Assembly: GCA_964621785.1 (NCBI GenBank)
Contig: CAZUPD010000021.1
Location: 2,009 to 66,008 of the forward strand
Reading direction: 5' to 3'
Source: an uncultured Nannocystaceae bacterium
GTDB lineage: Bacteria > Myxococcota_A > Polyangia > Nannocystales > Nannocystaceae
DNA: 64,000 nt
Positions 13,578 through 64,000 of this stretch are shown here, piece after piece. How positions within the stretch are numbered: position 1 is the stretch's first letter; every line of letters begins with the position of its first letter. The position numbers and the translations under genes are program-made. A model generated the notes under the pieces. The model did not search any database. It saw only the letters and a list, made by a program, of their open reading frames with translations, and was not told where the DNA came from.

Positions 13578-13931
13578 TTAGTTAAGAACGCGGGTCTCAC
13601 AGGCCTGTAAGTAGCCGCGCAGAGAATTGAACTGTTGCTCGGTCAGGTCGTGAAACCGGATGGCGAGTTCCGACCGGCTGGCCCGCACGACAACGCCGTG
13701 AACGGGGAGGTTGGCCGATCGCTCCGGAAACGACAGGACCATCGTTACGCGTGTGCCGCGATCCTCCCAGGCCGGTCCGAGAAACCGGCACCCACCGAGG
13801 CTCAAGTCTTCGAGGATGCGGGACAAAACCACCTCCGAACCGATGACATCTGCACTCGCGCGGATCCGAAGTCGAGGGTGGTACCGAGCATCATCTGTAG
13901 AGGTGTTCACAAGTGCATCATACCGACTCAT
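13578..13931 (-). CDS. PilZ domain protein
   Basis: ATG 13931. RLRIR ... DLSLGG motifs sit in a ~117-aa protein (MSRYDALVNTSTDDARYHPRLRIRASADV...LEDLSLGGCRFLG). Confidence 0.7.
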   Translation of the reverse strand: MSRYDALVNTSTDDARYHPRLRIRASADVIGSEVVLSRILEDLSLGGCRFLGPAWEDRGTRVTMVLSFPERSANLPVHGVVVRASRSELAIRFHDLTEQQFNSLRGYLQACETRVLN

Positions 13932-14149
13932 CGCGCATGTGGGTGAATGCGCGATGGGAGAGTCGTCACATTTTCCTGGGCCGGTTTGCGAGATGGACGC
14001 CGTGACACCCGTGGGGAAATTGCTGTGCCAATTTGGCAAAGCATCCGAGCAAAGCGGCCGACACAATCGGAAAAGTCGGTGTGAATGCCTGGGTTCTGGC
14101 AACTTGGACGGTTGGCCGCGAGATTGCTATACGCATCGTCGGTCCCGCG

Positions 14150-14662
14150 ATGTCACGGCTGCACACAATACTCCTCACTCTCCTGCTGGGTATCAGCCCG
14201 GTGTTTGCCACTGGTTGCAAGAACACGCCGACGATCCCCGGCACCAAGATCCCCGACACCGAGGAAAACCGCGAGATCCTTCAGGCGGTTGAGCGCTATC
14301 GGATCGCATTTGTGCGCCAGGATGCCGCCGCTGTGTTGTCGACTGCCCACGAGACCTACTTCGACGAGTCCGGGTCCGACGACCCTGGCGACGACATCGT
14401 CTACGAACAGTTGGGCAAGACCCTGCGGTTGCGCCTCAACCAGATCGAGTCGGTGCGCTTCACCATGGAGTACCTAGAGATTTTCATCCGCAACGAGCGG
14501 GCGACCGTCGACGTGTGGATGGACGCGAGTTTTCGGATGAAGCCGGTGGTCGATGACGAGGGCAACGAACGGATCTCCGCCCGTTACGCTCGCAAACAGG
14601 ACTGGGCCCGCTTTGAGTTGGTCCGCGAAGGCGAGAGCTGGCTGATCACCAAGGGCATTTGA
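14150..14662 (+). CDS. lipoprotein, NTF2/SnoaL-like fold (tentative)
   Basis: ATG 14150 gives MSRLHTILLTLLLGISPVFATGC (lipobox). ILQAVERYRIAFVRQDAAAVLS and the C-terminal WLITKG resemble DUF4440/SnoaL-like proteins. Confidence 0.55.
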   Translation: MSRLHTILLTLLLGISPVFATGCKNTPTIPGTKIPDTEENREILQAVERYRIAFVRQDAAAVLSTAHETYFDESGSDDPGDDIVYEQLGKTLRLRLNQIESVRFTMEYLEIFIRNERATVDVWMDASFRMKPVVDDEGNERISARYARKQDWARFELVREGESWLITKGI

Positions 14663-14714
14663 GTGGGTCGCGCAACGTGGTGCCGACCTGCGGCGTTCGG
14701 TATCCGGTTGCGGG

Positions 14715-16280
14715 CTAGCTCGGCGATCGAGCATCGCTCGCAGCGCACAGGCGACACACGGCAGCCAATACGCCGGTGGTACTCGGTGTATCTGCAACAT
14801 CAGCCACCGGCAGTCCGAGGTTCTCGACTCCGCGCCGGGTCACAGGGCCGATCACGACCACCTTGGCATGTGTCCTGTGCACCAGGGCAACGCCCGCACC
14901 TGTGCCCCACGCCTCGTCGACCGCAGCCAAAAAGTGCTCAGCCGTCTTGGTACTGGCAAAACACAGCACATCGATGCCTTCGCCGCCGTCTTCGTGTGGG
15001 CGCAGGGACGTGAGCAGATTACCCGGGAGGGAGGGCCGCGAAAGTCGATACGCGACCGCAACCTGGTAGCGACCCCCAGCCTGTGTGATCGCCGTCTCGA
15101 GGACGTCGCGGCCTTCCTGTGCACGTACATGTAACCACTGCCGTGCGAGCTCCTCGGCTTCGCGCAGCTGGTCGACCATCCCCTCGGAGTTGGGTGGATC
15201 CGCGATGATATCGGGGATGATCCCGCGTTTGCGCAGTGCGCCCGCCGTGCGCTCCCCGATCGCTGCAATCTTTGTGTGTACAAGTGAACGAAGGTCGAGC
15301 TCCCCGGTGATCGCACTAAAAAACTGCTCTACTGCGTTTGTACTCGAAAAAATCAGCCCGTCGTGATCGCGGAGGGTCCGAATGGCTTGTAGCAGCAAAT
15401 CTGTTGTTGGCTCGACCCGCAGGCACGGTACCGGGACCGCATCGGCTCCGAGGTGTGCGAGTTGTGCGAGGAGGTCGTGGGACTGCTCAAACGCCCGGGT
15501 TATCACCACGCGACGCCCGAACAGCGGGCGCGACTCGATCCACTTAATTTGTTCGCGCAGCGACACCACCGAGCCGACGATCATCACTGCGGGTGGGCGC
15601 AGGTTGGCCGCCTCGATCGCATCGCCGATGGTCGCCAGGGTGCCGACGACCGTCTGTTGAATCCCGCGCGTACCCCAGCGGACAAGTGCCACATCGGTGT
15701 TGGGGTCGCGCCCCGAGGCGACCAGGCGCTCGGCATTTTTTCGACAGTTGCGGACACTCATCATCAGCACAAGCGTGCCGCCATGCCGGGCCATATGTTC
15801 CCATCCGACGCCGCGCCCGCGCTTGTCGTAGGCCTCGTAGCCCGAGATCAGACTGACCGATGGGGTGTGGTCGCGCTGGGTGATCGGAATCCCGGCGACC
15901 TCGGGTGCTGCGATCGCAGCACTCACCCCGGGGACAAACGCATAGGCGATTCCCGCTTCGCGCAACACGATCGCCTCTTCGCTGCCGCGGCCAAACACCA
16001 TCGGATCGCCACCTTTGAGTCGGACCACGTATTTGCCCTGCTGTGCGCGGTCGACTAGGAGCTGGGAGACCGCTCGCTGATCGAGGCTCATGCCCGAGTT
16101 GTGGGGGCCGCGGCTGCGCTGGATGACCTCAGCGTCGGGCCGACAGTGCAGCAAGAGAGCCGGATTGACGAGGTAGTCGGCGATCACCACATCGGCGCGG
16201 CGCAGGCACTCGAGGCCTTGCAGTGTCAAGAGTTGCGGATTCCAGGGGCCCGCACCGACCAACGAGACAAATCCCGGCAT
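14715..16280 (-). CDS. cobA: uroporphyrinogen-III C-methyltransferase fused to uroporphyrinogen-III synthase
   Basis: The N-terminal half has SUMT motifs (VGAGPWNPQLLTLQG, VVRLKGGDPMVFGRG, VPGVSAAIAAP). The C-terminal ~250 aa is HemD-like (GRRVVITRAFEQSHDLLAQL...). Confidence 0.9.
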   Translation of the reverse strand: MPGFVSLVGAGPWNPQLLTLQGLECLRRADVVIADYLVNPALLLHCRPDAEVIQRSRGPHNSGMSLDQRAVSQLLVDRAQQGKYVVRLKGGDPMVFGRGSEEAIVLREAGIAYAFVPGVSAAIAAPEVAGIPITQRDHTPSVSLISGYEAYDKRGRGVGWEHMARHGGTLVLMMSVRNCRKNAERLVASGRDPNTDVALVRWGTRGIQQTVVGTLATIGDAIEAANLRPPAVMIVGSVVSLREQIKWIESRPLFGRRVVITRAFEQSHDLLAQLAHLGADAVPVPCLRVEPTTDLLLQAIRTLRDHDGLIFSSTNAVEQFFSAITGELDLRSLVHTKIAAIGERTAGALRKRGIIPDIIADPPNSEGMVDQLREAEELARQWLHVRAQEGRDVLETAITQAGGRYQVAVAYRLSRPSLPGNLLTSLRPHEDGGEGIDVLCFASTKTAEHFLAAVDEAWGTGAGVALVHRTHAKVVVIGPVTRRGVENLGLPVADVADTPSTTGVLAAVCRLCAASDARSPS

Positions 16281-16486: not shown

Positions 16487-17392
16487 TCAGTTCACACGGC
16501 GTCGGCGTAGGTGCAGCCCGGCGAGACAAAGTCCCGCGAGCGCGAGGCCTTCGATCGGCGCCAGATTTTTATTGATGCTACAACAACCACCGTGGCGTTC
16601 GGGATCGGAGATCAGGGTCGAGCACGTGTCGGACATATCGGAAGTCAAGTCGAGTCCGGCTTCGTCGCGCAGCCAGCACAGTTCACTGGCCGGCAGCGTG
16701 TAGTAGCCCCCCTCGCCGCACATCACGCCTCGAGACGTGACGCCCGCGAGCAGCCGTCGACCGTCGGAGAGCACGATAAACGCGGGTCCTCCCGAATCGC
16801 CTTGGCACGAATCCTTGCCGTCGCCTCCCGCTCGGAACTCGTGCCCCGACTCGCTGAAGTGCGTGATCTCGGTTTCGACAAATTTCTTCGTCCCGGAATT
16901 GCTTTGCTCATCCTGCCCGTAGCCGACCAGTAAAACAGTTGCTCCTACAAACATTCCCTCGTCCCAATCATCCTGTTCGAGAAGAACCTCAGCAGGGGTC
17001 GCGGGGAAGGGCTCGGCGAGCTTGAGGTAGGCGAGGTCGTGGATATCTTCTTTGCACGTGTCGAGGTCGTTGCAAAAGTCGGGGTGGGACCCGAATGCCT
17101 CGACGTCGTAATAGGGACTGCCCGCCTGATCGCCTTTGGATACGCGGATCGACCCCAACGACAGGCTATTGGGAAAACAGTGGGCAGCGGTGAGGACCAC
17201 GCGACTCGACACGAGCGTGCCGGTGCACAAAACGGAGCCCGCCTGGATCGCTACGACATCGGGATACTCGCCGGGACTCACAACCTCGCCCCCATAAATC
17301 GCACTGGGCGGAGGGACTGGCGTGGCGAGGTCGTCGCCCGAGCTCGCCACCGCGGCGACTGTTGAGAGGGAGAGGGCGATCAGATCCAACAT
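16487..17392 (-). CDS. trypsin-like S1 serine protease with MYXO-CTERM-like sorting tail
   Basis: Signal peptide, then IYGGEVV, TAAHC and DSCQGDSGGP. The C-terminus HGGCCSINKNLAPIEGLALAGLCLAGLHLRRRRVN is a Cys motif + TM + Arg cluster. Confidence 0.85.
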   Translation of the reverse strand: MLDLIALSLSTVAAVASSGDDLATPVPPPSAIYGGEVVSPGEYPDVVAIQAGSVLCTGTLVSSRVVLTAAHCFPNSLSLGSIRVSKGDQAGSPYYDVEAFGSHPDFCNDLDTCKEDIHDLAYLKLAEPFPATPAEVLLEQDDWDEGMFVGATVLLVGYGQDEQSNSGTKKFVETEITHFSESGHEFRAGGDGKDSCQGDSGGPAFIVLSDGRRLLAGVTSRGVMCGEGGYYTLPASELCWLRDEAGLDLTSDMSDTCSTLISDPERHGGCCSINKNLAPIEGLALAGLCLAGLHLRRRRVN

Positions 17393-47701: not shown

Positions 47702-49525
47702 TCAGTGCTTGACCACGAGGACCACCAACACCAAAAAACCCTTTTGCTCGCCGGATGGGATTTTGGCCATCCCGACCCCAACCGTGTCACCGAGGTCCTT
47801 GCGCCATAGATCGAGTGTTTGGAAGCTGGCGAAACGCCCCCCGATGACCATGTGTTGACTGACCTCGGAATACTCGATGGTCGGCAGCTTGGTCTTGAAG
47901 ATCTTTTCGGCTTCGGCGCTTTTGTTGTCGGCTCGACCCTCGGCGAGGATCTGGGCCAAGGCATCCGCTTGGTCGAGCCACGTGGCCTGTGCCAGCCCAG
48001 CTTGTTTGCGAATGCCGTCGACCTGTTTGCGGATCGCGGCGACCGGGTCCCGCGGGAGATCGGCACCCGGGGCCAGGTAGTAGTTCTGGGTTACAAACAG
48101 CGGGCGAGGGGCATCGGCGACGGGTGAGATCGGATCGCCGATCACCACGCCGATGCCCACGTGGCTGACGTCCTCGGCGACAATGTTGACGCGGTGCCCC
48201 GGGCTGCGCATCAACCCTTCGTGGATGTCTCTCGGACCTGTTCCAAGAGCAATGTTTTCTCGAATCACCGGGTAGCTCAGGCCGGCGGATTCAAACCGAT
48301 TGTCGACTTCGCCGGTCGTCGGCGAACGATGGCCGACAAATCCCGATTTGTACATATCGCGGCTGTGGGCACGGGCAACCTCCGCGACCTTGGCATCCCA
48401 CGCGACCGGCGCAAGGCCGCGTTGTGCCCGTGTGGCGTTGATGTACTCGAGGCCAGATCGTTCGAGATCGTTGACCGAAACCCCGGGCGCGACACGTTCG
48501 ATAACCATGTGGATCGAGTCGGGTAGTGACTCGCTGCAGTAGACAGGGAAGTTGGCCACGACTTCGGGGCCATGGCGGCCGTCGCCGAACACCTCGATCT
48601 GGTAGCGTCCCTTGCGTTCGCATGTGACTTGGGCGCTGAATTGTTCTGCCGTACCGGTCGCCGGAATCGATGCCCATACACCCTTTGGATCGACGACATC
48701 GATCCGCGGGTGCTGGCGACCTCCGAGCAGTGTGCCCGAAAGTTCGACCGTGTCCCCGCGTTCGTGGTGGACGGCGATCGGCTCTAAATCGATCCCGTGC
48801 AGGCCCATCACGCCGACGAGCAACACGCTGCCGTCTTCGCGTTTGGCGACCCCCGCACCGATCGCCGACCACTCGGCTTCGTGCACACGGGTGGCCTCGG
48901 CGATCAACGAGTCAACACCTTCGGGACAGGCCCCTGCGCGTGCGTCAGTCACACAATCACCGGCGCCGGCCGGGATTTCGAGCGACACAATTTTGGGGGA
49001 AGGACCGGTCAGCCCGGCCCACGACAGCAACCCTTCGACGAGAGTGGCGGGGACCGTCAGGCGGTCGGGAGCATGTTGCGCGAGTACTCGGGCGACTTTT
49101 GAAAGTCGAACATCGTGTGTCCCTCCGCCGCGTTCAAGCTGGCGGACAAGCGTTTGTTCGATGCCGAGCAACTCGTAGGACGCACTCGAGTCGGCGGCGT
49201 AGGTACTGGCGTGGGCACCCGGGAGCGGGATGGTTTGCTCGGAGATTTCGATACCCTTGACCGGTCGCGGCGCCCGGACCCGTGAGCCCGTCGGACCGGT
49301 TGGCGTGGTGCAGCCCGCGAGAATCAATGAAGATGCAAGAAGTTTCCCCGCGAAGGTCCACAGCCGGTGGTTTGGCTTGCCGACTGCGTCGCGTCGACGG
49401 TCTTGCGAGCACTCGTCGAGAGTTTGCGCGTCGATCGAGTGGGTTTGAACGAACGGATCCGGAGCGCAAGGTTGCTGTGAGATTTCGGCCCGCGGGTTGC
49501 TTTGGGCATCGCGACCCGACCTCAT
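47702..49525 (-). CDS. CAP/SCP domain lipoprotein
   Basis: The ATG at 49525 overlaps the upstream stop (ATGA, 49522-49525). Lipobox: SLILAGC. CAP region: YINATRAQRGLAPVAWDAKVAEVARAHSRDM...SPGHRVNIV. Confidence 0.75.
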   Translation of the reverse strand: MRSGRDAQSNPRAEISQQPCAPDPFVQTHSIDAQTLDECSQDRRRDAVGKPNHRLWTFAGKLLASSLILAGCTTPTGPTGSRVRAPRPVKGIEISEQTIPLPGAHASTYAADSSASYELLGIEQTLVRQLERGGGTHDVRLSKVARVLAQHAPDRLTVPATLVEGLLSWAGLTGPSPKIVSLEIPAGAGDCVTDARAGACPEGVDSLIAEATRVHEAEWSAIGAGVAKREDGSVLLVGVMGLHGIDLEPIAVHHERGDTVELSGTLLGGRQHPRIDVVDPKGVWASIPATGTAEQFSAQVTCERKGRYQIEVFGDGRHGPEVVANFPVYCSESLPDSIHMVIERVAPGVSVNDLERSGLEYINATRAQRGLAPVAWDAKVAEVARAHSRDMYKSGFVGHRSPTTGEVDNRFESAGLSYPVIRENIALGTGPRDIHEGLMRSPGHRVNIVAEDVSHVGIGVVIGDPISPVADAPRPLFVTQNYYLAPGADLPRDPVAAIRKQVDGIRKQAGLAQATWLDQADALAQILAEGRADNKSAEAEKIFKTKLPTIEYSEVSQHMVIGGRFASFQTLDLWRKDLGDTVGVGMAKIPSGEQKGFLVLVVLVVKH

Positions 49526-50802
49526 GGCACTAACTCCACGGTCGCGGCGTGTTGCCAGGCGTGAAAATCTGGCTTGCGCGTGGGTGTAAGCGCGAGGCCC
49601 TTGGAGCCGCGTCGGCCGGGGCGTTCGATGCGAAACACATTGGTGCGAAAGCGTGTGCCGGCCTGCGGTGGGCACGGGATCGTTGTGTGTGCACAAATCT
49701 CGGTCCAGGCGATCGCAACCTCCGCGGTCCATCCCTGATCGCGGTCGACCGGACCATCGAGGGTGCCGCGAACATTCACGGCCGTGCGCCAGGTTGAATC
49801 CCACGCCTCATCGCCCTTGCGGTAGCGGGGAAAGGCGGCGTCAAAGGTCACGTTCCGGGCAGAAACTTGGTACTCGAGGTATTTGCTGCCACTGTTGTCA
49901 CCGGCGACGAACACCTCGAATACATCTTGCCTGTACAAGGGATCGTCCTGATCGCGGTACTCGGTCCAAATGTCGGTGTCGGGGAGGTCCGCGGCGAAGT
50001 AGAGGTACTCGGTATCCCAGGCAGCCCACACGCGCGTCGGAGGGTCGGGGTCGGGTTCGCCTTCGAGGCTGGTCACCAGCTCATGGCCAGGGAGATGCCA
50101 CACGGCTTCGTCGAGCTTTCCGTCGAGCATCGGTGGTTGTACAAGTTTTTCGACGGCGAGATGTGTCGGGGTTGCGACCACGGGAACCATCGCCAACAGT
50201 CCGCGACCGTCGTCTGTCCGGGGCCCTGACACAACCGGATCTCGTGGGCACTGGACGTCGACGACGGCTTGCGACGGGTGCCACGGGGTGGGGAGTTCGA
50301 GTTTGTTGTCGCCATCGGCGAGGTCGACTTCGCGGATCCGACTGTCTGGCCTGTGGGGTGGCTCGTCACCACGGGGCACGACCTGACGTGCCGACGCGCG
50401 AGGCGGTCGCACTCCGAGGTGACAGCCTTTTGGGTCACCTTCGATGTGCAGGGAGACGGCAACCGCTTGACCTGGCTGCAGGGGCAGGGGTGATGTCACC
50501 CGGATGGCGTCGATCGTCATGCCACTCGCAAACTGGATCGTACCCGAGAATGCTCCGGCGCTGTCGGCGAGTTCGAGGTGGCGGGTCGGCTCGGGGGGGG
50601 ACTGGGCGCGCTCACTCGCGCTGCGCGGGTCTGTACAGGTACAAACCGTAAGGGCGGCCAGCAGGATCCCAGTGTAGTTACAAGATTTGTGTGTGCCCGT
50701 CGCGGTTTCGACAACGTCGCCGCCGCGATCCGAGGTTCGGCAAGTGACCCGAGGATCGGTTCGACGCGCCGTGTTCACCGAAGGGTCGCCAACACAATCC
50801 AC
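49522..50802 (-). CDS. carbohydrate-binding family 9 (CBM9/DOMON-like) domain protein, probable lipoprotein
   Basis: MLDGKLDEAVWH...AAWDTEYLYFAADL...DVFEVFV...YLEYQVSARN...FRTNVFRIE. GTG start lies 6 nt after the upstream stop. Candidate lipobox: LAALTVC. Contains a G8/C8 run at 50593-50600. Confidence 0.65.
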   Translation of the reverse strand: MDCVGDPSVNTARRTDPRVTCRTSDRGGDVVETATGTHKSCNYTGILLAALTVCTCTDPRSASERAQSPPEPTRHLELADSAGAFSGTIQFASGMTIDAIRVTSPLPLQPGQAVAVSLHIEGDPKGCHLGVRPPRASARQVVPRGDEPPHRPDSRIREVDLADGDNKLELPTPWHPSQAVVDVQCPRDPVVSGPRTDDGRGLLAMVPVVATPTHLAVEKLVQPPMLDGKLDEAVWHLPGHELVTSLEGEPDPDPPTRVWAAWDTEYLYFAADLPDTDIWTEYRDQDDPLYRQDVFEVFVAGDNSGSKYLEYQVSARNVTFDAAFPRYRKGDEAWDSTWRTAVNVRGTLDGPVDRDQGWTAEVAIAWTEICAHTTIPCPPQAGTRFRTNVFRIERPGRRGSKGLALTPTRKPDFHAWQHAATVELVP

Positions 50803-54579: not shown

Positions 54580-56031
54580 GTGCGCAAACGAACGGATGGA
54601 TTGTTCGGGGCAACTGCACGGCTGTGGCAAGATGACCGCGTGAGCTCCGAGCCCAGCCTCGAAAAGCCAGTGCCTTCGGCCGCGGATCTGACGCTGCGTG
54701 TCGCTCGCACGGCGCTCACAGGTCTGCAGCCCGAGGAAGTCAGCCGGATCCGCAGCTACCTGTTCCCCGATATTCCGCAGCACAACGTCACAAAAGGCCG
54801 CCGGATCTGGTTGTTTATCGCCTACACCCTGCGTCGGTGGTTGCAGGTTGACCGCGCCACCAGTCTGGCTTCGACCCTGTCTCTTCAGACATTGCTCTCG
54901 GTTGTTCCGGTCGCTGGGTTGTTGCTCACCGGCGTCGGTCTACTCGGGCGTGAGAGCGGTGGCAAGTTGCTGCAACAGATCGCCATCGTCCTGATCCCCG
55001 AAACCGATCGCGCGGCCCGGATCGCCGACGCCGTGTTCGACTTGGCCAACAACATCACCGTCGAGCGCCTCGGGTTGTCCGGATTTTTGAGTGCGTTGAT
55101 CGTCGCCTCGCTGTTGTTTTTGACGCTCGAAAAGACGGCCAATCGGATCTGGGGCGTCACCCGCCGGCGCAGTCCGATCAACAAATTCACGATGTTTTGG
55201 ACCCTCGCCACCCTGGCGCCACTCATCATTATCTACAGTTTGGCGCAGCCGGTGTTCTCCGAGATCACCCAACAATCGTTTATTCCCACGCCGATTTTGA
55301 CGACCGCGATCGGGCTGGTGTTGCTCAACCGGTTTATGCCGATCACCCCGGTCAAGTGGCAGGCTGCCCTGGGCGGCGGGGTGTTGTCGGCAGTGTTGTT
55401 CGAGGTCGGCAAGTGGGGTTTTGGTGGCTACCTCGCGGTCGTCTCGCTCTACGAAAGTGCCTACGGATCGCTCTCGGTGTTGCCGGTGTTCACCGTGTGG
55501 ACCTACGTCTCGTGGATGTTGGTGCTCCTCGGCATCGAAGTCTCGTTTGTCCTGCAGCATCTCGATGTGGTCGAAAAGGAAGGTTTCGTCAATCCCAGCC
55601 TGCGGCGCGACCTGTTGCGACCGGCGCCCACCGGGCGGATGGCGCTGCGCCTGATGTTGGCGATTTGCGACCACTACGACCACCGCAACGCCGGACTGAC
55701 GATCGCAGCCCTCGAAGATCGCTATCAACTCGGGATCGAGCAGACCAACGCGATTATGCAGCGCTTGGGCGAGGCAGGTTTTGTGCTCGAGACGGCGGCC
55801 GAAGAGTCCTGTTATGTGCCTGGCAGACCCCTCGACCAGATCCTCGTCCGCGATATTTTGGTGTTGTTTGACGCCCCCGACCACGCCCACATCCGGCGCG
55901 ATGACACGCTCGCAAAGTTGTTTCACAAGCTCGATGCCGACCAGGAGCGGGCGTTTGGTCAGCTGACCTATCAGGAGCTAATTTTGCAGTCTCGGCGTCA
56001 ACGCGAGGTTTCTGTGGGAGGGCCGGGGTAG
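54580..56031 (+). CDS. YihY/BrkB family membrane protein with C-terminal soluble extension
   Basis: TLRRWLQVDRATSLASTLSLQTLLSVVP and about 6 TM helices, then a ~130-aa cytosolic tail. Start is uncertain (GTG 54580 or 54640). Confidence 0.75.
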   Translation: MRKRTDGLFGATARLWQDDRVSSEPSLEKPVPSAADLTLRVARTALTGLQPEEVSRIRSYLFPDIPQHNVTKGRRIWLFIAYTLRRWLQVDRATSLASTLSLQTLLSVVPVAGLLLTGVGLLGRESGGKLLQQIAIVLIPETDRAARIADAVFDLANNITVERLGLSGFLSALIVASLLFLTLEKTANRIWGVTRRRSPINKFTMFWTLATLAPLIIIYSLAQPVFSEITQQSFIPTPILTTAIGLVLLNRFMPITPVKWQAALGGGVLSAVLFEVGKWGFGGYLAVVSLYESAYGSLSVLPVFTVWTYVSWMLVLLGIEVSFVLQHLDVVEKEGFVNPSLRRDLLRPAPTGRMALRLMLAICDHYDHRNAGLTIAALEDRYQLGIEQTNAIMQRLGEAGFVLETAAEESCYVPGRPLDQILVRDILVLFDAPDHAHIRRDDTLAKLFHKLDADQERAFGQLTYQELILQSRRQREVSVGGPG

Positions 56032-56166: not shown

Positions 56167-57372
56167 ATGTCCAGCTTCTCGTCGGTGACTCGGGTGGCAC
56201 CAGGTTTGTTGCTTGCGCTTGCATGTGCCTGTGGAGGCGGTGACGAGCGCGAGAGCGAGTCGGCTTCAAACGCGAGCGCACCGACGGGGATCACCTCGTT
56301 GACCTCGGGACCGAGTGGTTCAGACACAGCCCAAGAGACATCCGGGACCGAGGATGGATCCGACTCCGATGGTTCGAGCACGTCTGGGACAGACTCCGAT
56401 TCCGACTCGAGCACCACCAGTCCGTTTACAACCAGCGACAGCGAGAGCAGCGACAGCACGGGGAGCAGCGAGAGCAGCGATGGCAGCAGCAGCGACAGCG
56501 AAACCGGTTTCGGCTGTGGCGACCAAGGCGAGTACGGCTGTGACAAGGTCGATTTCTTGTTTGTCATCGACAACTCGGGCTCGATGGGCGACAACCAAGA
56601 CAACCTGATCGCGAGCTTTCCCGGGTTTATCTCGACAATCCAAAACACATTGCCCAACAACGACTACCAGATCATGGTGGTCGATACCGATGCCGGGCAG
56701 GGGATCGAACTCAACCTGTGTATCAATCAATGTATGAACAACCCAGGCTTGGAGACGTGTTTCCCGTTCGGGTATCCGTGCAGCCCCTTGCCAGATGCCT
56801 GCGATGAGACCCTCGGTGCGGGGGTCGTCTATCCGATCGGGGGCGGGTCATCGAACGAATACTGCCAGCTGTTTGGCGGCAATCGGTACATCCTCCACAC
56901 CGATCCCAACGTCGCGGGTTCGTTTGCCTGTGTCGCCAAGGTCGGGGACGACGGGGACGGGAGCGAACGCCCGGCCGAGGCCATGGTCCAGGCCCTGAGT
57001 TTCCAACAAAACCAGCCCGGTGCGTGCAACGAAGGGTTTTTACGCGACGACGCACTGCTCGTGATCACCATCATTACCGACGAGCCCGACACCAACTCCC
57101 AGGGGATCCCAGGGGGATGGGCCGCCAATGTCATCGCGGCGAAAAAGGGCGACCAAAAACGCGTGGTCGTGCTGAGCCTGCTCACCGATCCAGAACAACC
57201 CAATCCGGTGTGCAGCGAACAGCATGCACCTGCACCGTTGTTGCGCGAGTTTACCGAGTCGTTTACCAACCACATCATCGCCAGCGTGTGTGAGCCCAAT
57301 TATTCGGAATTCTTCGCCCAGGCGGTCGGACTGATCGACAACGCTTGCTGCGAGTTTGAACCGCCGCAGTAG
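56167..57372 (+). CDS. VWA-like domain lipoprotein
   Basis: Lipobox: LLLALACACGG. S/D/T/E linker. DFLFVIDNSGSMGDNQ (MIDAS DxSxS). Confidence 0.65.
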   Translation: MSSFSSVTRVAPGLLLALACACGGGDERESESASNASAPTGITSLTSGPSGSDTAQETSGTEDGSDSDGSSTSGTDSDSDSSTTSPFTTSDSESSDSTGSSESSDGSSSDSETGFGCGDQGEYGCDKVDFLFVIDNSGSMGDNQDNLIASFPGFISTIQNTLPNNDYQIMVVDTDAGQGIELNLCINQCMNNPGLETCFPFGYPCSPLPDACDETLGAGVVYPIGGGSSNEYCQLFGGNRYILHTDPNVAGSFACVAKVGDDGDGSERPAEAMVQALSFQQNQPGACNEGFLRDDALLVITIITDEPDTNSQGIPGGWAANVIAAKKGDQKRVVVLSLLTDPEQPNPVCSEQHAPAPLLREFTESFTNHIIASVCEPNYSEFFAQAVGLIDNACCEFEPPQ

Positions 57373-57415: not shown

Positions 57416-58252
57416 TCACCGACGGTCGGTCGATTCGAACAGGCGATCGGCAGAGTCGCTGACAAAACCCGAAAACAACTCGCCACCGACCGGGTGGCGC
57501 AGGGCAAACTCGTAGTAGCAACCCGGGATCGAAAGTGGACCGTCGGCGAACGGGACCGAGGTCGGGGCCGCGAGCGTCGAGGCCTGCTCGAGTCCGATGT
57601 CGGCTGTGCCCTTGATCACCCCGCCACTGTGGTTGAGGACAAATCCCGCCGCCTCGAGAATCGAGCACAACTCGGCCAAGCTAGCGACCGAGCGCAGGGC
57701 GTTGGCCGAAACCGTAAAGTGGTTGGCGCGATAGCCAAATGCAGCCATCCACGCGGCGTACTCGCTCTCGCGTCGCAGCGCTTCGTAGGTCGATTGGGCG
57801 ACCGGTGCCCACGGACGTCCACAGTTGCAAAAGGTGGGCGAGGTGATCGCGTTGTGCGGGATCTGGGCGACCAAGTCGGCGATCGTTGTGCGAGCATCGT
57901 TCGTCAGCTCGTCGACCAGTAGCTCGCTGATAAAAACCTTGGGGAGTTGGGGCTGGGGCGGGTCGTAGTGATGGGCGCGTAGTCGTTTGCGGATGAAGCG
58001 ATAGGAGCCGCCGTGGCGATAGCCCGCAGTGAGAAACGGACGCGCAAGGTGTTCGAGGCCCGCTGGACCAGCGAACGTGCGCAGGGCGATGTGGTCGTTG
58101 AGCACCACGTCGCCGCGGTCGTGCAGCAGTCGGTGAATCGCCTGCGCCTGCGGGTTGATCGCGGTGTAGTCGCGCCAGAGGTCGGCAAACAGTCGCCCGA
58201 GGTCGTGCATGCAAAAGAGGTAGCGCAAGTTCGAGAACCGTGCGCGGGTCAT
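57416..58252 (-). CDS. DUF1338 (YdcJ/HglS-like 2-oxoacid dioxygenase family) protein
   Basis: LFADLWRDYTAINPQAQAIHRLL...VLNDHIALRTF...FISELLVDEL. Start is ATG 58252 or 58210. Confidence 0.75.
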   Translation of the reverse strand: MTRARFSNLRYLFCMHDLGRLFADLWRDYTAINPQAQAIHRLLHDRGDVVLNDHIALRTFAGPAGLEHLARPFLTAGYRHGGSYRFIRKRLRAHHYDPPQPQLPKVFISELLVDELTNDARTTIADLVAQIPHNAITSPTFCNCGRPWAPVAQSTYEALRRESEYAAWMAAFGYRANHFTVSANALRSVASLAELCSILEAAGFVLNHSGGVIKGTADIGLEQASTLAAPTSVPFADGPLSIPGCYYEFALRHPVGGELFSGFVSDSADRLFESTDRR

Positions 58253-58477
58253 TTGGACGATGGATTCGGTGCACGGCCAACAGACCTCTGCGAATCGCCG
58301 GGAATGCGACGCCCCCGTTGTGGTGCCTGTAGGCCACACATCTCGCACGTCATGTCGCGGCCGGCCCAAGATCGTCGGTTCCCCAGATTCGTCGCGCGAT
58401 GGATGTTTTCGCGGGATGATGCGATACTCGAGCTCGCGCATCGCCCCCCGCGTTTGGGTTGCGGTCGAGGAGTCCCT

Positions 58478-60463
58478 ATGAAAACCCCTCAAGCCTGTTT
58501 CAGATTCTTACCCACGGCTCTGCTTGCACTGGCGATCGGCTGTAATTCGCCGACCTCGTCGGGCAGCGACAGCGACAGCGACAGCGATTCCGATTCGCAG
58601 ACGACCGACAGCGAAGACAGTGAAACCGATGGCGAGGCAGGGTCGGATACCGATGGCGGCCTGCCCGAACCGTCCGAGCTCGCCGGCTTTGACCGCTTTG
58701 TCCTGCGCGTCGATGACTCCCCACCTCCGCCGCTGACCCTGGTGATGAACCACCAAGATTCGATCGACTTCTTTGGTTCCCAGGCGGCCGAGCTCAAACT
58801 CATCGACATCGACCCTACGCCGATGTTGGAAAATGCGTTGGCCACCATCCAAAATGCGTGCGGGGAGAAGTGGAAACTCGACAACAAAAATCCACAGCCC
58901 AATTGTCAGCTGACCGATCTCGGCAAGACGTTTGGGTCCAACTGGCAACACTCGCCCGAGTATTCGATGGTGCGGCTGTTGGCGATGACGCCGGCCAATG
59001 CCGATATGCGGGGGACCCCGTTCGACAAGTTGGCCGACATCATGGACTCGAACGAACAGAACTTCCCGGAGGGATTTGCCGGGATGCTGACCGACACCCT
59101 CGAGATCGAGCGCACCGATCCACTTTTGCCACTCGGGGCATTGGTCGCGGCTGTGAAGGAGACGCTGCTCCAGCATCCCGCTGTCAATCCTGATGGGACA
59201 TTGGGGGTGACACTCGATGATGCCCTCAAGGACATGCGTCCACTGGCCGACAAATTTGGCCCGGTCGACGACCACCCGGGGGTACTGCTTCCCGACAGCA
59301 TCGATAACCCCGACGGCTTCGAGACCAAAAGCGATGCCATCAACCACGACACCTTCCAGATGAAAGTCGTGGCCGGCAGTAACCTGCGGTTTGTCGACGG
59401 GGTCGACCTGTCGCATGGCGGAGGGGACATGTTCCTCCTGCGCGACGATGCCGAAAACGTGCTCGACCTGAAGTTCACGGGGGCCAACGAGAGCAATCTC
59501 GAAATCAAAGGCATCAACGATCCTCCGACGATGGATATGCGGATGCGGATCAACGAATTTCAGGGGGACGTTGAGCCGTGCCTCACACCTTTGGAAAGTT
59601 GTCAGACCAACCTTCCAGATGCAGTCAGCAGCGACGCTCCTGAGACCAACGTCTGGCGGGTCCCCCTGTGGAGCATGGAGCGGCTCGTCGGCCAAGCGGG
59701 TTTTCGCTCGTACAAAGATGACCCCGAAGATTACTCAAAGGACATCTCCAAGGATCTTTGCATCTTCGCCGGCTCCGGGAATAGCTGCTACATCGGCCTC
59801 AAGCTCGGGCAAGACCCGGCTCCCGAAGGGTGGATGGAAATCTACCTCGACGAGGATCTCTTCAACCCCAACGGCTTCCCCAAACCCCAATACTTTTGGG
59901 AGCTATTTGTCGATATCGCAGAAGTCGCGTTCCACGATGTCGACCCCGACAATCCCGGGGACGAGATTGGCGAGGATCAACCTCCGACCTTCGCCCTGAC
60001 CAAACTCAGCATCGGGGTCACGGCCGACGAGCTGATCGCCCAGATCCGGCAGTCACTCGAGGATCAAGAAGACATCATGAGCGACTTGATTCTCGGGCGT
60101 TACTGGAAAAACAACCACGCGCTCGACTTCTACTACCGCCGTGCCAGCGACGGGCAGTTGTACCTGTTTTTCGCCAACCACGAGGATTTGCGGCCGCATC
60201 CCAACGACCCCAACACCGCGCTGCAACCGGAATATGCAAACCCCGGGTTCTTCTCGTGTCCGCAGGTCGATGAATCCTGCAAACAGTCGCAGCTCAACAT
60301 CTCGGGGGTCAGCGACGTGACCCACGAAAAACTCCGGCTCAAACGCGGATGGAACAATTTGTACATGCAAGACGATCTTGACCAAATTTACGAGGTTCGT
60401 TTCTACGTGCCGGAAAACCGTGAAGCTTCCAAGATCTGGGCCTATGTTCGTCCCGCCGTCTAA
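58478..60463 (+). CDS. uncharacterised lipoprotein, paralog 1 of tandem family
   Basis: ATG 58478. Lipobox: LLALAIGC. (SD)n linker. Shares MTPANADMRGT, YFWELFVDIAEV, LDFYYRR and THEKLRL blocks with the next two ORFs. Confidence 0.75.
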   Translation: MKTPQACFRFLPTALLALAIGCNSPTSSGSDSDSDSDSDSQTTDSEDSETDGEAGSDTDGGLPEPSELAGFDRFVLRVDDSPPPPLTLVMNHQDSIDFFGSQAAELKLIDIDPTPMLENALATIQNACGEKWKLDNKNPQPNCQLTDLGKTFGSNWQHSPEYSMVRLLAMTPANADMRGTPFDKLADIMDSNEQNFPEGFAGMLTDTLEIERTDPLLPLGALVAAVKETLLQHPAVNPDGTLGVTLDDALKDMRPLADKFGPVDDHPGVLLPDSIDNPDGFETKSDAINHDTFQMKVVAGSNLRFVDGVDLSHGGGDMFLLRDDAENVLDLKFTGANESNLEIKGINDPPTMDMRMRINEFQGDVEPCLTPLESCQTNLPDAVSSDAPETNVWRVPLWSMERLVGQAGFRSYKDDPEDYSKDISKDLCIFAGSGNSCYIGLKLGQDPAPEGWMEIYLDEDLFNPNGFPKPQYFWELFVDIAEVAFHDVDPDNPGDEIGEDQPPTFALTKLSIGVTADELIAQIRQSLEDQEDIMSDLILGRYWKNNHALDFYYRRASDGQLYLFFANHEDLRPHPNDPNTALQPEYANPGFFSCPQVDESCKQSQLNISGVSDVTHEKLRLKRGWNNLYMQDDLDQIYEVRFYVPENREASKIWAYVRPAV

Positions 60464-60487
60464 CCTCGAAAAAGCAGCGCACCTACC

Positions 60488-62272
60488 ATGACGAATCTGT
60501 TTGGCAAACTCCGTCCCCTCCTCAGCTGTGTGGCGCTCGGCCTGTGCCTCAGTGCCTGTGTGCAAGAGGTCACCCTCGAAGAAAAACCCGATCCGGTCGA
60601 GATGGAGGTCGGGGAGGTTCGCACCGTCGAGATGCGTCACTGGCGGTTCGAGGTGAAAAAGTTCGAGATGCAACTCGACCTAGAGGCCCTCAAGGCGATG
60701 CCCGAGAAGGTCCTGCGCGAAACCTGGATGGTCGACTTGGACGTCCGTCCGCTGATCATCAACTCGCTCGACAAGCTGCTCAACATGCCGCCCGACGAGA
60801 TCGATCAGCTCCCGGATGCCGAGTACAACATGTGGCACCTGCTGACGATGACCGCCGATACGGCCGATCTGCGGGGGACCAGTTTGGAGTCGCTGTTGGA
60901 GGTTGGCGAGGGGGTCGGGCTCGCGCCTTCGCGGGTGCTCGCCGATCTCGTCGAAGTCGAGGTCGATCAGCCGATCATTCCGCTCGAGATGATTGCAGAT
61001 GCAGTGATCGTCAACATGATCGAGACCCACCCCAGCGCCCAATTTCGCCGGGGTCCGGTTGACGAAGCCCATCCCGACGGCCTCTACCCGGTCACCCCGG
61101 GCACGCTGCCGGTGAGTATGTGGGATGTGGTCACCGACTTCGCCGAGCTGCCGATCCAATTCGGCCCGTCGCCCATCGCTACCGAGCACGGGTACCATCC
61201 CGGCTTCATTGCAGATACATCGGGTCTCAAGGCGACGACAGCCGACTTTTCGATGGCCGTTCAGGTCGACCTCAATGCGTTTTCGTATGAGGGCCTCGAC
61301 ATGTCGACCACGAGTATCGGCGCCGTCAACAGCACCGCCAGCCAGATCCGCGATGTGTTCGACTTCAACAATCCCGACTGGCTCAAGCTCGAAGGACTCA
61401 AGCAGGATTTGGTGATCGACGAGCTGACAATGTCGATTTTCGAGGCGCCGGTGTTTATCTCCGGGGGCACGTCGCGCGACCCGGCCCCGCTCGGCAACTC
61501 CGAGGTATGGGACCGGGCGCCGTGGGAGTTCGAACGCCTGCTGGCCGATGTCGCAGTGTTGCGGGCGAGCGAGGTGTCGGAGCACTGTACGGTGTACCAG
61601 CCCGAGGGCACGTTAGAAGAACCGTTTGATGCCGTGCAGGCCTGCTTCGAAGCAGACGCGTGGGTGTCGATCTCGGTCGACCAAAAAGTCGAGCTCGACG
61701 AGCAGCCGCCACCGCCATCCTACTTTTGGGACATGTTGCTAGAAATCGCGCAGTCCCTCCTCCACAATGGCGGAATCGCCGAAGGAGCCGGAAGCGTTGC
61801 CCTGACCCTCCGCGATATCCCAACCGGTGTGGATACAGAGGAATTGGTCAACGAAATCAAGACCAACATCATGAGTAATCCAGAGGCGATGGCCGACTTT
61901 GCATCGCTTTTAAACAAGAGCCACATCGGCGACCCCGACTTCTACTACTATGTCCCACGGGTCGACAATTCGGATGCGATCAAGGGTGACTACCTCTACT
62001 TCATTACACCGCGAGACCTTCGCACCGATGACGATGGTTTCGCCGTGCGCCCATATACGTATCAAAAGCCGGGTTTTTATAGCGACCGTGCCCTCAGCCA
62101 AAAGGTCTCGAACCGAGACGATGTCGATGGCGATACTGTCCACGAAAAGGTCAAGATCGAAGCGGGCGATGTGTTGTACATGCAAGATGAAGATCTGCGG
62201 GTGTACAAGCTCAGCGTGCTCGACAAGCCCAGCGGATACAAAATCGCACTCGATATCGAGCGGGTCGAGTAG
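60488..62272 (+). CDS. uncharacterised lipoprotein, paralog 2
   Basis: Lipobox: ALGLCLSAC. Colinear with paralog 3: MTADTADLRGT, HPDGLYPVTPGTLPV, APWEFERL, PPPPSYFWDMLLE, GDPDFYYY, THEKVKI. Confidence 0.8.
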   Translation: MTNLFGKLRPLLSCVALGLCLSACVQEVTLEEKPDPVEMEVGEVRTVEMRHWRFEVKKFEMQLDLEALKAMPEKVLRETWMVDLDVRPLIINSLDKLLNMPPDEIDQLPDAEYNMWHLLTMTADTADLRGTSLESLLEVGEGVGLAPSRVLADLVEVEVDQPIIPLEMIADAVIVNMIETHPSAQFRRGPVDEAHPDGLYPVTPGTLPVSMWDVVTDFAELPIQFGPSPIATEHGYHPGFIADTSGLKATTADFSMAVQVDLNAFSYEGLDMSTTSIGAVNSTASQIRDVFDFNNPDWLKLEGLKQDLVIDELTMSIFEAPVFISGGTSRDPAPLGNSEVWDRAPWEFERLLADVAVLRASEVSEHCTVYQPEGTLEEPFDAVQACFEADAWVSISVDQKVELDEQPPPPSYFWDMLLEIAQSLLHNGGIAEGAGSVALTLRDIPTGVDTEELVNEIKTNIMSNPEAMADFASLLNKSHIGDPDFYYYVPRVDNSDAIKGDYLYFITPRDLRTDDDGFAVRPYTYQKPGFYSDRALSQKVSNRDDVDGDTVHEKVKIEAGDVLYMQDEDLRVYKLSVLDKPSGYKIALDIERVE

Positions 62273-62290
62273 TCAGGAGCTGCCATAGCC

Positions 62291-64000
62291 ATGTCTCGCG
62301 CGCCACGTTTCCATCACCCCCTGCGCGCGGCCGCGGTCGCGATGATCATTGCTGGTACAAGCTCATCTTGTATCGTCAAAGAAGTCACCTACGAACCGCC
62401 CCCGGAAACCACCGAGATGGCCCAGGGCGAGACCCGTAGCGTGGTGTTGCTGTACAGCCGCTTCGATGTCGAGGACTTTGAGCAGGTGATGACGATCGAG
62501 GATCTCAGCCGCCTGCCGCTTGCGACCTTAGAAAAGGTGTGGCTGCTCGACTACGATCCGTCGCTGCTGATGAATGCCGTGCTCGAGGACCTCAAAAACC
62601 TGCCGCCCGATGAGGTCGATAAGCTGACGGTGCCGGCCCAAAACATGCGCAAGCTGCTGAAGATGACGCCAGATACGGCCGATCTGACGGGCACCAATCT
62701 GGAAGAGGCAATCTCACTGGCCCAATCGGTCAACATCCCTCCCGCACGGGTGCTGGCGGATTTGCTGGGGGTGGGGGTGACCGAAGATGTCCTGACGCCG
62801 GCGATCGCGACCGAGGTGATCCGACAGTCGCTGATCGGCAGTCACCCCAACGGACAGACGCGCAAAGGAGCAGTCACCGAAGATCATCCCGACGGAATCT
62901 ACGAGGTGACGCCAGGAACCATTCCCGTGACGCTCGCCGATGTCGTGACCGAGTTCAAAGCCCTGCCCGAACGCTTTGGCCCGATGCCGGTCGACCCCGA
63001 AGATCCCGATAGTCCGATCCACCCGGGTTTCATTACCGCCGCGAGCGGGATCCCGTGGGAGACGACGATGACGGTGAAAGCCAACATCAATGCGCTCCCC
63101 TACGAGGGGGTCGATCCGACCTACACCACGATGAATTACGTCAACAGTGTGCCGTCGCAGATCGACACGATGTTCGACTTCAGCGATCCAGAGTGGATGA
63201 AGGTCGAGGGCCTGGGCGGAACCATCGTGATCGAAACAATCACCATGGGGATCGTCGAAAACGACAGCTTCATTCCGGGTGGTACGGCACAACAACCGGA
63301 GGGCGTCGGGGATTCGCCGGTGTGGGATCTTCCGCCGTGGGAGTTTGAGCAGATGATCGCCGGGATGGCGAAGCTCAAGGCCGACGAGATCCCAGCACAC
63401 TGCGACGAGTACAAGTTCAACACGGGGACCGTGGCCTTCCGCGCGTGCATCAGCGAGAGTGCCGAGGACGATCCAAAACCCGAGGTCCCCTGGGCGTGGA
63501 CAGAACTGAAGTCGTTCGGAGATATCGGCGATCCACCACCGCCGGCCTATCTCTGGGATGTGCTGCTCGAGGTGGTCCAGGTCCGGTTGCACGACGGAGG
63601 CCTGGCCGAGGGACAAGCGGATGTCGAGTTCACGCTGAAGGATGTCGAGATCGATGTCGATGAGGCCGAAGAAAAGAAGTTGGTCGACGAGATCAAAGCC
63701 AACTTCCAAGAAGACCCAGGGGCGTTTGTCGAGGTCGCCAAGACGCTGGTCGACAGCTCCACCGGCGATCCCGATTTCTACTACTACCGACCCGAACTCG
63801 ACAACTCCATCGATATCCAAGGCGACTGGCTGTACTTCGTGACCGAGGCCGATATCCGAGTCGATGACGAGGGGGAGCTGGTCCGACCCTACGCGTACGA
63901 GAAGGTCGGTTTTTACGCGGACGAGGGCCTGAACGAGAAGGTTTCGTCGACGATGGAGGTCGACCTCGATACAACCCACGAGAAGGTCCAAATCCATCCC
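62291..64000 (+). CDS. uncharacterised lipoprotein, paralog 3 (3' end beyond window)
   Basis: Own translation from ATG 62291: MSRAPRFHHPLRAAAVAMIIAGTSSSC... with MTPDTADLTGT, HPDGIYEVTPGTIPV, PPWEFEQM, PPPPAYLWDVLLE, GDPDFYYY, THEKVQI. It is not in the ORF track because there is no stop before 64000. Confidence 0.8.
   Translation, partial: MSRAPRFHHPLRAAAVAMIIAGTSSSCIVKEVTYEPPPETTEMAQGETRSVVLLYSRFDVEDFEQVMTIEDLSRLPLATLEKVWLLDYDPSLLMNAVLEDLKNLPPDEVDKLTVPAQNMRKLLKMTPDTADLTGTNLEEAISLAQSVNIPPARVLADLLGVGVTEDVLTPAIATEVIRQSLIGSHPNGQTRKGAVTEDHPDGIYEVTPGTIPVTLADVVTEFKALPERFGPMPVDPEDPDSPIHPGFITAASGIPWETTMTVKANINALPYEGVDPTYTTMNYVNSVPSQIDTMFDFSDPEWMKVEGLGGTIVIETITMGIVENDSFIPGGTAQQPEGVGDSPVWDLPPWEFEQMIAGMAKLKADEIPAHCDEYKFNTGTVAFRACISESAEDDPKPEVPWAWTELKSFGDIGDPPPPAYLWDVLLEVVQVRLHDGGLAEGQADVEFTLKDVEIDVDEAEEKKLVDEIKANFQEDPGAFVEVAKTLVDSSTGDPDFYYYRPELDNSIDIQGDWLYFVTEADIRVDDEGELVRPYAYEKVGFYADEGLNEKVSSTMEVDLDTTHEKVQIHP

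Follow-up and report, generated by a model that had tools for sequence, protein, structure and literature searches.

What do three large, mutually related lipoproteins do side by side at the end of a stretch of myxobacterial DNA, and do they belong together? The stretch, called the window below, comprises 64,000 nucleotides (nt) of contig CAZUPD010000021.1 (assembly GCA_964621785.1, positions 2,009 to 66,008 of the forward strand) from an uncultured Nannocystaceae bacterium. A first interpretation made from the letters and the open reading frames (ORFs), here called the sequence-only reading, described the three genes at 58478-64000 as a tandem array of lipoproteins of an unknown family, which could be a multi-subunit envelope machine or a diversifying surface/contact family and which might continue downstream. 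We found that homologous genes are invariably linked to a gene for a barrel protein of the FadL family. Judged from gene order and conservation, the three lipoproteins, named A, B1 and B2, most likely make up the fixed subunits of an envelope complex that handles lipids, rather than an open-ended or diversifying array.

The ORF coordinates bear out three lipoprotein genes on the same strand, separated by 24 nt (copies 1 and 2) and 18 nt (copies 2 and 3), each with a lipobox. In the following list pLDDT is the AlphaFold2 confidence score (predicted local distance difference test), and F in gene orders stands for FadL.

58478..60463, plus strand: copy 1, A-type lipoprotein of 661 amino acids (aa), with signal peptide, lipobox Cys22, acidic disordered linker and family domain.
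58478..58543, plus strand: lipoprotein signal peptide of copy 1, ending LAIG-C22; the Cys is kept across the family.
58544..58660, plus strand: tether of copy 1, residues 23-61, rich in S/D/T/E/G, recognised by pLDDT <50 and a tandem repeat.
60488..62272, plus strand: copy 2, B1-type lipoprotein of 594 aa, lipobox LSA-C24, equivalent to the second gene of A-B-B'-F operons.
62291..64000, plus strand: copy 3, B2-type lipoprotein, lipobox SSS-C27, 570 aa without a stop codon, cut at the window end.

Each of the three lipoboxes is preceded by n- and h-regions, and the lipobox Cys is present in 163 of 167 family sequences. No terminator-like site was found on the plus strand between the three genes. 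They are predicted from sequence to be co-transcribed. The window ends inside copy 3, which is short of only about 34 residues when compared with its 604-aa orthologue in the closest relative, and no further paralog copy or FadL gene was found elsewhere in the window. The family domain of copy 1 (roughly 590 aa) lies C-terminal to the linker. A perfect (CAGCGA)x4 repeat at 58564-58587 encodes (SD)4 in the tether, inside the region that AlphaFold2 left disordered (residues 1-61).

Copies 2 and 3 are colinear, as the sequence-only reading had stated, and share 44% identity over 562 aa (E 2e-159). The motifs it had listed as common to them are all present, except that the last one reads T(V/T)HEKV.I and not THEKV.I. 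Copy 1 is 24% identical to copy 2 (E 1e-24) and 25% identical to copy 3 (E 5e-19), in alignments that cover about 500-580 residues. Comparison of the A and B subfamily profiles by hhalign gave a probability of 100% and an E-value of 5.7e-84 over 509 columns. This means that copy 1 is a full-length diverged homologue of copies 2 and 3, in agreement with its earlier description as a diverged member carrying an (SD)n linker.

With which genes does the family occur? We compared 82 related loci, one genome per species, consisting of two initial genomes and 80 more from a scan; genes in the loci were classed by tblastn, and FadL genes were found with two operon FadLs as queries. In the first two genomes, paralogs of 670, 604 and 587 aa (Nannocystis) and of 618 and 608 aa (Sorangium) are followed by a PF03349 (Toluene_X/FadL) gene. 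In each of the 82 loci, one A-type gene shares its strand with one or two B-type genes, and the number of lipoprotein copies per locus is never above three. A FadL-family (PF03349) barrel gene is present in 76 of the 82 loci, and the other 6 are cut by the contig end exactly at its expected place. The operon FadLs clear the Pfam gathering score of PF03349 (E 6.5e-31 in locus L083 and 2.3e-38 in L001). The gene order is A-B-(B')-F in Nannocystis, Sorangium, Chondromyces and, as far as it reaches, the window, and F-A-B in Enhygromyxa, Paraliomyxa and marine Nannocystaceae metagenome-assembled genomes (MAGs). Because two gene orders exist, the FadL linkage survived a rearrangement. The metagenomic locus L085 has the genes A+Ig, C+Ig, B and FadL (Ig, immunoglobulin-like domains), and all four overlap by 1-4 nt. 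When all ORFs of 85 loci were clustered against each other, only A/B and FadL were universal; YihY/BrkB (31 loci), PAS-histidine kinases (14 loci, of the Nannocystis type) and Ser/Thr kinases were lineage-specific neighbours. The homologues thus do not show the single-copy, scattered pattern that the sequence-only reading had named as evidence against itself, and the invariable FadL linkage agrees with its first suggestion, a multi-subunit envelope machine.

Sorangium So ce1078 (L019) has an extra A-type gene at 13769-15511, right after FadL (A-B-F-A). This is the only locus that we have seen with a second A-type copy.

Does the array continue beyond the window? An exact look-up of the window's own protein gave no record, and the closest relative served for the comparison instead. 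In this relative (L083), the A gene product is 76% identical to copy 1, there are exactly three paralogs (665, 598 and 604 aa), and the next gene of the system is FadL. It follows that the window array almost certainly stops at copy 3, against the expectation that more copies would follow. By analogy with this relative, the next component after copy 3 would almost certainly be the FadL barrel and not a fourth copy.

Are the copies equivalent to each other? In a neighbour-joining tree with the A clade as outgroup, the B-type proteins fall in two clades, B1 and B2, which we take as moderate evidence as the tree has no bootstrap values and its internal branches are short. The B1 clade unites the genes in second position of A-B-B'-F operons with the lone B of the Sorangium-type A-B-F operons, and the B2 clade unites the genes in third position with the lone B of the F-A-B operons. 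Copy 2 of the window belongs to B1 and copy 3 to B2. This split, together with the positional orthology, indicates that the duplication is older than the divergence of the lineages and was followed by differential loss. The subunit classes A, B1 and B2 are therefore ancient and keep their positions, which also fits a multi-subunit machine. The minimal set is probably A, one B and FadL, a conclusion in which our confidence is moderate.

The tandem paralogs, the lipoboxes and the repeat-encoded (SD)n linker might instead be taken as signs of a diversifying surface antigen or a contact-dependent family, which was the other suggestion of the sequence-only reading. The comparison with the closest relative gave dN/dS (nonsynonymous to synonymous substitution rates) of 0.14 for A, 0.09 for B1 and 0.08 for B2, which are rough values with dS near 1. 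They show that these are genuine constrained genes, clearly under purifying selection. Furthermore, orthologues are 45-50% identical between genera, many columns are invariant, the number of copies stays at two or three, and their positions are orthologous across orders. The linker repeat has a period of 6, so that the reading frame is kept; slippage would alter the length of the tether and would not switch the gene off. The idea of a diversifying family is thus effectively excluded.

Is the family related to any known protein? Scans of all three copies with Pfam and NCBIfam gave no meaningful match, a Pfam scan of 46 aligned B-type members one by one gave scattered noise only, and a sequence search of the PDB with a single sequence and with the profile gave no match. 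A match to a characterised family, which had been named beforehand as refuting, was not found in the profile searches, and the description of an unknown family, in which no catalytic motif or known domain can be recognised, holds. In particular, no lipase or esterase domain was found by Pfam (46 B-type members), NCBIfam (three copies) or the PDB search, and the lipoproteins do not match a SusD-like Pfam domain; the adjoining barrel in the relatives is PF03349, not a TonB-dependent transporter. The B types contain a 'GDS' tripeptide, and its reading as an SGNH-type motif was rejected since the A types lack it and Pfam does not support it. In the literature, the search for a homologue that has been characterised returned analogies only (VolA, BamG/H and MXAN_7039/7040). 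This is a previously undescribed, myxobacterial lipoprotein family.

AlphaFold2 with the family alignment gave confident models for the B type (pLDDT 87.7, predicted template modelling (TM) score 0.80) and the A type (pLDDT 81.7, predicted TM-score 0.72). Taking E<=0.001 to a PDB chain as a match to a solved fold, Foldseek found none for either model (the best E-values were 0.12 with the B model and 0.97 with the A model, and the TM-scores were negligible), and the B model had no match in BFVD at E<0.05. The top Foldseek matches (chalcone isomerase, PGM1, BamB and PAS fragments) were discarded as noise, with very low TM-scores or very short alignments. These models suggest that the lipoprotein domain is possibly a new fold.

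A word-indexed search yielded 102 B-type and 25 A-type clusters, and an exhaustive HMMER search of 1.84 billion representatives yielded 308 clusters at E<=1e-3, 252 at E<=1e-10 and 177 at E<=1e-30. All members that bear an organism name are from Myxococcota, mostly from the class Polyangia (Nannocystis, Enhygromyxa, Paraliomyxa, Sorangium, Chondromyces and Polyangium), with one 'Hyalangium sp.' MAG and one 'Bradymonadia bacterium' MAG in addition; no named match is attributed to the genus Myxococcus. The distant matches include a third architecture, lipoproteins of 840-1020 aa in which tandem Ig-like domains (Big_7, E 2.9e-22; Glucodextran_B, E 2.3e-10; Big_13) occupy 300-470 aa between the lipobox and the family domain of ~530 aa. 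Ig-like domains are absent from the three window copies by Pfam.

NCBI names many B-type members 'acetyltransferase', and this name is the only point in favour of such an activity. No acetyl- or acyltransferase model matches even at E<=1, in Pfam for the 46 B-type members or in NCBIfam for the three window copies, which have no acetyltransferase match in Pfam either, and the A-type paralogs are named otherwise ('hypothetical' or 'lipoprotein'). To our knowledge, acetyl-CoA is out of reach for a lipid-anchored protein outside the cytoplasm. We regard the label as a propagated annotation that the sequences do not support, and an acetyltransferase is effectively excluded.

What could such lipoproteins do next to a FadL? 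The explanation that we favour, tentatively and with a little less than even confidence, is that they form a hetero-oligomeric module, probably surface-facing, which captures or processes a hydrophobic substrate for the FadL lateral-diffusion channel. A, B1 and B2 would be the lipoprotein subunits of a Myxococcota-specific outer-membrane module, and its fourth universal component would be a 14-stranded barrel of the FadL/TodX family, encoded just past the window end. Each lipoprotein would be lipid-anchored in the outer membrane, and the large domains would be kept off the membrane by a tether, formed by an acidic and disordered stretch here and by tandem Ig-like domains in the distant relatives. 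The paralogs may form a hetero-oligomer on the FadL barrel, most likely on the extracellular side, which would capture and possibly process a hydrophobic or amphipathic substrate (a fatty acid, a lipid or similar). The substrate would then be handed to FadL and pass via the hatch and the lateral opening into the envelope. In this scheme we infer the physical complex, the surface orientation, the direction of transport, the substrate class and whether the conserved His/Glu/Asp set described below binds or catalyses.

Of the 167 A and B sequences, at least 93% retain each of ten polar residues, which in the numbering of copy 2 are H181, H237, H426, E319, E349, E432, D271, D484, D510 and S541. 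This suggests a functional site common to every paralog. As three His, three Glu and three Asp are conserved in all paralog classes, the paralogs might primarily be extracytoplasmic enzymes, for example metal-dependent lipid hydrolases or lipid-modifying enzymes, whose product, and not the substrate they bind, feeds FadL. A precedent exists in VolA of Vibrio cholerae, a surface lipoprotein lysophospholipase co-expressed with FadL (PMC3656444), and the paralogs would then be VolA analogues on a different fold. However, no catalytic motif or enzyme family was found by Pfam, NCBIfam, PDB sequence search or Foldseek, the GDS-like tripeptide of the B types is missing from the A types, and two or three paralogs in a fixed order fit structural subunits better than redundant enzymes. 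We therefore consider a primarily enzymatic role unlikely. VolA remains close in arrangement, in that a lipoprotein gene stands beside a FadL-family channel gene on the same strand (76 loci, with stop/start overlap in L085), and in the proposed logic, in that a surface lipoprotein would prepare or capture a lipid which the adjacent FadL imports. In contrast to VolA, which is a single lysophospholipase with a recognisable lipase domain, the myxobacterial set consists of two or three ~600-aa paralogs, which contain neither a lipase domain nor any other known one and have no fold match in the PDB, and its fixed paralog classes suggest a hetero-oligomer.

On which side of the outer membrane would the subunits lie? 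In M. xanthus, Lys at position +2 is the retention signal of inner-membrane lipoproteins (PMC3222651). The residues at +2 after the lipobox Cys are N, V and I in the three copies, none of them Lys, although this rule comes from M. xanthus and has not been validated in Polyangia. Six further Cys are invariant in the A-type sequences, as would fit disulfides formed in an oxidising compartment, and the acidic linker of copy 1 and the Ig-like arrays of the long forms suggest that the domain is held off the membrane. A periplasmic location is the main alternative here: the lipoproteins would sit on the inner leaflet of the outer membrane, either downstream of FadL, where they would accept the hydrophobic molecule from the membrane or the barrel and pass it on, or upstream of it in the export of a hydrophobic product. 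Lol-sorted lipoproteins go to the inner leaflet by default, Myxococcota have no known signal for surface export, the FadL linkage would fit this location just as well, and a YihY/BrkB inner-membrane protein recurs upstream in 31 loci. However, long tethers and tandem Ig-like spacers of 300-470 aa would be enough to cross the periplasm or reach beyond it, and such features are more typical of surface proteins, and the documented contacts between FadL homologues and lipoproteins are extracellular (PMC12578637). On balance, the periplasmic arrangement seems to us rather improbable, about as much so as the enzymatic one.

The operon FadLs share a conserved N-terminal motif, ASG(L/F)DAP...DAAA.(H/Y)WNP(A/G), right after the end of the apparent signal peptide (judged by eye), which we take to resemble the hatch NPA region of the transport-type E. 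coli FadL. The FadL homologues BamG and PorV of Bacteroidota bind surface lipoproteins or cargo (PMC12578637). BamG is a 14-stranded barrel that binds the large surface lipoprotein BamH via extracellular loops, and a paralogous barrel/lipoprotein pair, Bt1785/Bt1786, exists (PMC12578637). It is thus conceivable that the myxobacterial barrel and its lipoproteins have a structural or biogenesis role like BamG-BamH, as accessories to another envelope machine and not as a transporter; one operon FadL also has a weak match to NCBIfam BamG (18.5 bits against a cut-off of 250). BamG differs in that it belongs to the β-barrel assembly machinery (BAM) and has a conserved N-terminal extension of ~10 residues through the lateral opening (PMC12578637), whereas the operon FadLs show no evident extension of this kind and retain the hatch-like NP(A/G) motif, which fits a FadL of the transport type. 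Moreover, neither bamA nor bamD was found near the lipoprotein genes in the first two genomes and the closest relative, and the lipoproteins have no fold match to any PDB chain. A BamG-like role is very unlikely.

Our preferred model, a lipoprotein module serving a FadL channel, can also be compared with SusC/SusD, in which a nutrient-uptake barrel has an obligately co-encoded lipoprotein partner or partners and the adjacency is clade-wide. SusC is a TonB-dependent 22-stranded transporter of Bacteroidota, whereas the barrel here is of the FadL type, which is a passive lateral-diffusion channel, the phylum is Myxococcota, and the lipoproteins are not SusD/RagB. A more specific version of the model would be a machine peculiar to Myxococcota, with a FadL channel capped at the surface by a hetero-oligomer of two or three paralogous lipoproteins of a new fold, a 'SusCD for lipids' made from unrelated parts, in which the shared His/Glu/Asp site binds or processes lipids, possibly harvesting them from prey or the environment. 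This version is possible, and we hold it with clearly less confidence than the general model. In respect of stand-alone barrels of the FadL/TodX/OMPP1 family (PF03349), the partner barrel passes the Pfam gathering threshold and keeps the hatch-like motif, but no need for dedicated lipoprotein subunits has been described for classical FadL, TodX and TbuX, and in the loci studied here the two are invariably linked. The lipoprotein gene MXAN_7039 of M. xanthus shares a transcript with fadL (MXAN_7040). The two proteins were detected in the outer-membrane fraction with 34 and 13 peptides, respectively (PMC3222651), and MXAN_7039 is among the cell-envelope genes required during development in a transposon screen (bioRxiv 10.64898/2026.08.28.747804). 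This is a similar case in a myxobacterium of a lipoprotein gene co-transcribed with fadL, the comparison being one of gene arrangement and not of sequence.

Several observations weigh against the favoured model. The window ends before any FadL gene. In the closest relative, repeats and an inserted RibD_C gene separate the third paralog from FadL, which lies about 2 kb downstream; in locus L047, FadL is 7.5 kb from the lipoprotein genes. Clustering of the neighbouring ORFs revealed no conserved substrate-related enzymes (fadD and the like) near the lipoprotein loci. The tethers and disulfides are compatible with both a surface and a periplasmic orientation, and the tree behind the B1/B2 classes has the weaknesses given above.

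In the closest relative, the repeats lie at 15682-16113 and 17022-17220 of the locus, flank the RibD_C gene and consist of a 147-bp unit present 2.9 times (96% match) and a 94-bp unit present 2.2 times. The operon there seems to have been split by this repeat element.

Which other genes of the window might be connected with the system? The upstream neighbours are as follows.

49522-50802, minus strand: CBM9-like domain protein (PF06452, E 5.9e-10).
54580..56031, plus strand: YihY/BrkB-family inner-membrane protein with a C-terminal extension (PF03631, E 1.2e-37).
56167..57372, plus strand: 401-aa lipoprotein with lipobox ...LALACAC, an acidic S/D/T/E-rich linker and a weak VWA/MIDAS signal.
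57416-58492, minus strand: HGLS-family 2-oxoadipate dioxygenase/decarboxylase-like protein (PF07063, E 1.6e-25), divergent from copy 1.

The loci most syntenic with the window (L018, L031 and L040) have the order YihY/BrkB, VWA-like lipoprotein, A, B, B', FadL, and their upstream pair corresponds to the window genes at 54580-56031 and 56167-57372. In the 31 loci mentioned above, which include Sorangium (about 25% identity), the YihY/BrkB homologue is encoded upstream of the operon, at a distance of a few kb. A functional link to the operon is possible. The product of 56167-57372 matches VWA_2 with E 0.0028 and the NCBIfam 'MIDAS family adhesin' with E 1e-5, far below the cut-off, and its linker is encoded by imperfect 9-nt repeats at 56439-56499. 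Among the related loci, only the closest ones (L018, L031, L040 and L083) have the VWA-like lipoprotein upstream of A. It directly adjoins A in the first three, two minus-strand genes lie between them in L083, and one minus-strand gene parts it from copy 1 in the window. It may be a lineage-specific accessory adhesin-like protein, outside the universal core. The CBM9-like and HGLS-family neighbours seem unrelated to the lipoprotein system.

What does this mean for FadL channels and for myxobacteria? The lipoprotein family is undescribed, and the type of system, an outer-membrane barrel with lipoprotein partners, is already known. FadL channels are the general route for hydrophobic molecules over Gram-negative outer membranes and tend to be regarded as acting alone. 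Lipoproteins that partner them are known from a few separate examples only, namely VolA in Vibrio and BamG-BamH in Bacteroidota. If FadL and its lipoproteins do form an obligatory module throughout the clade in Myxococcota, the 'barrel plus lipoprotein' design would reach into a further phylum and take in lipid transport there. The lipoprotein subunits, which have no sequence or structural relatives among known proteins, are candidates for a new protein fold, and the propagated database name 'acetyltransferase' is corrected. If the model holds, the module would also provide a handle on lipid acquisition or exchange by predatory and cellulolytic myxobacteria such as Sorangium, Nannocystis and Chondromyces.

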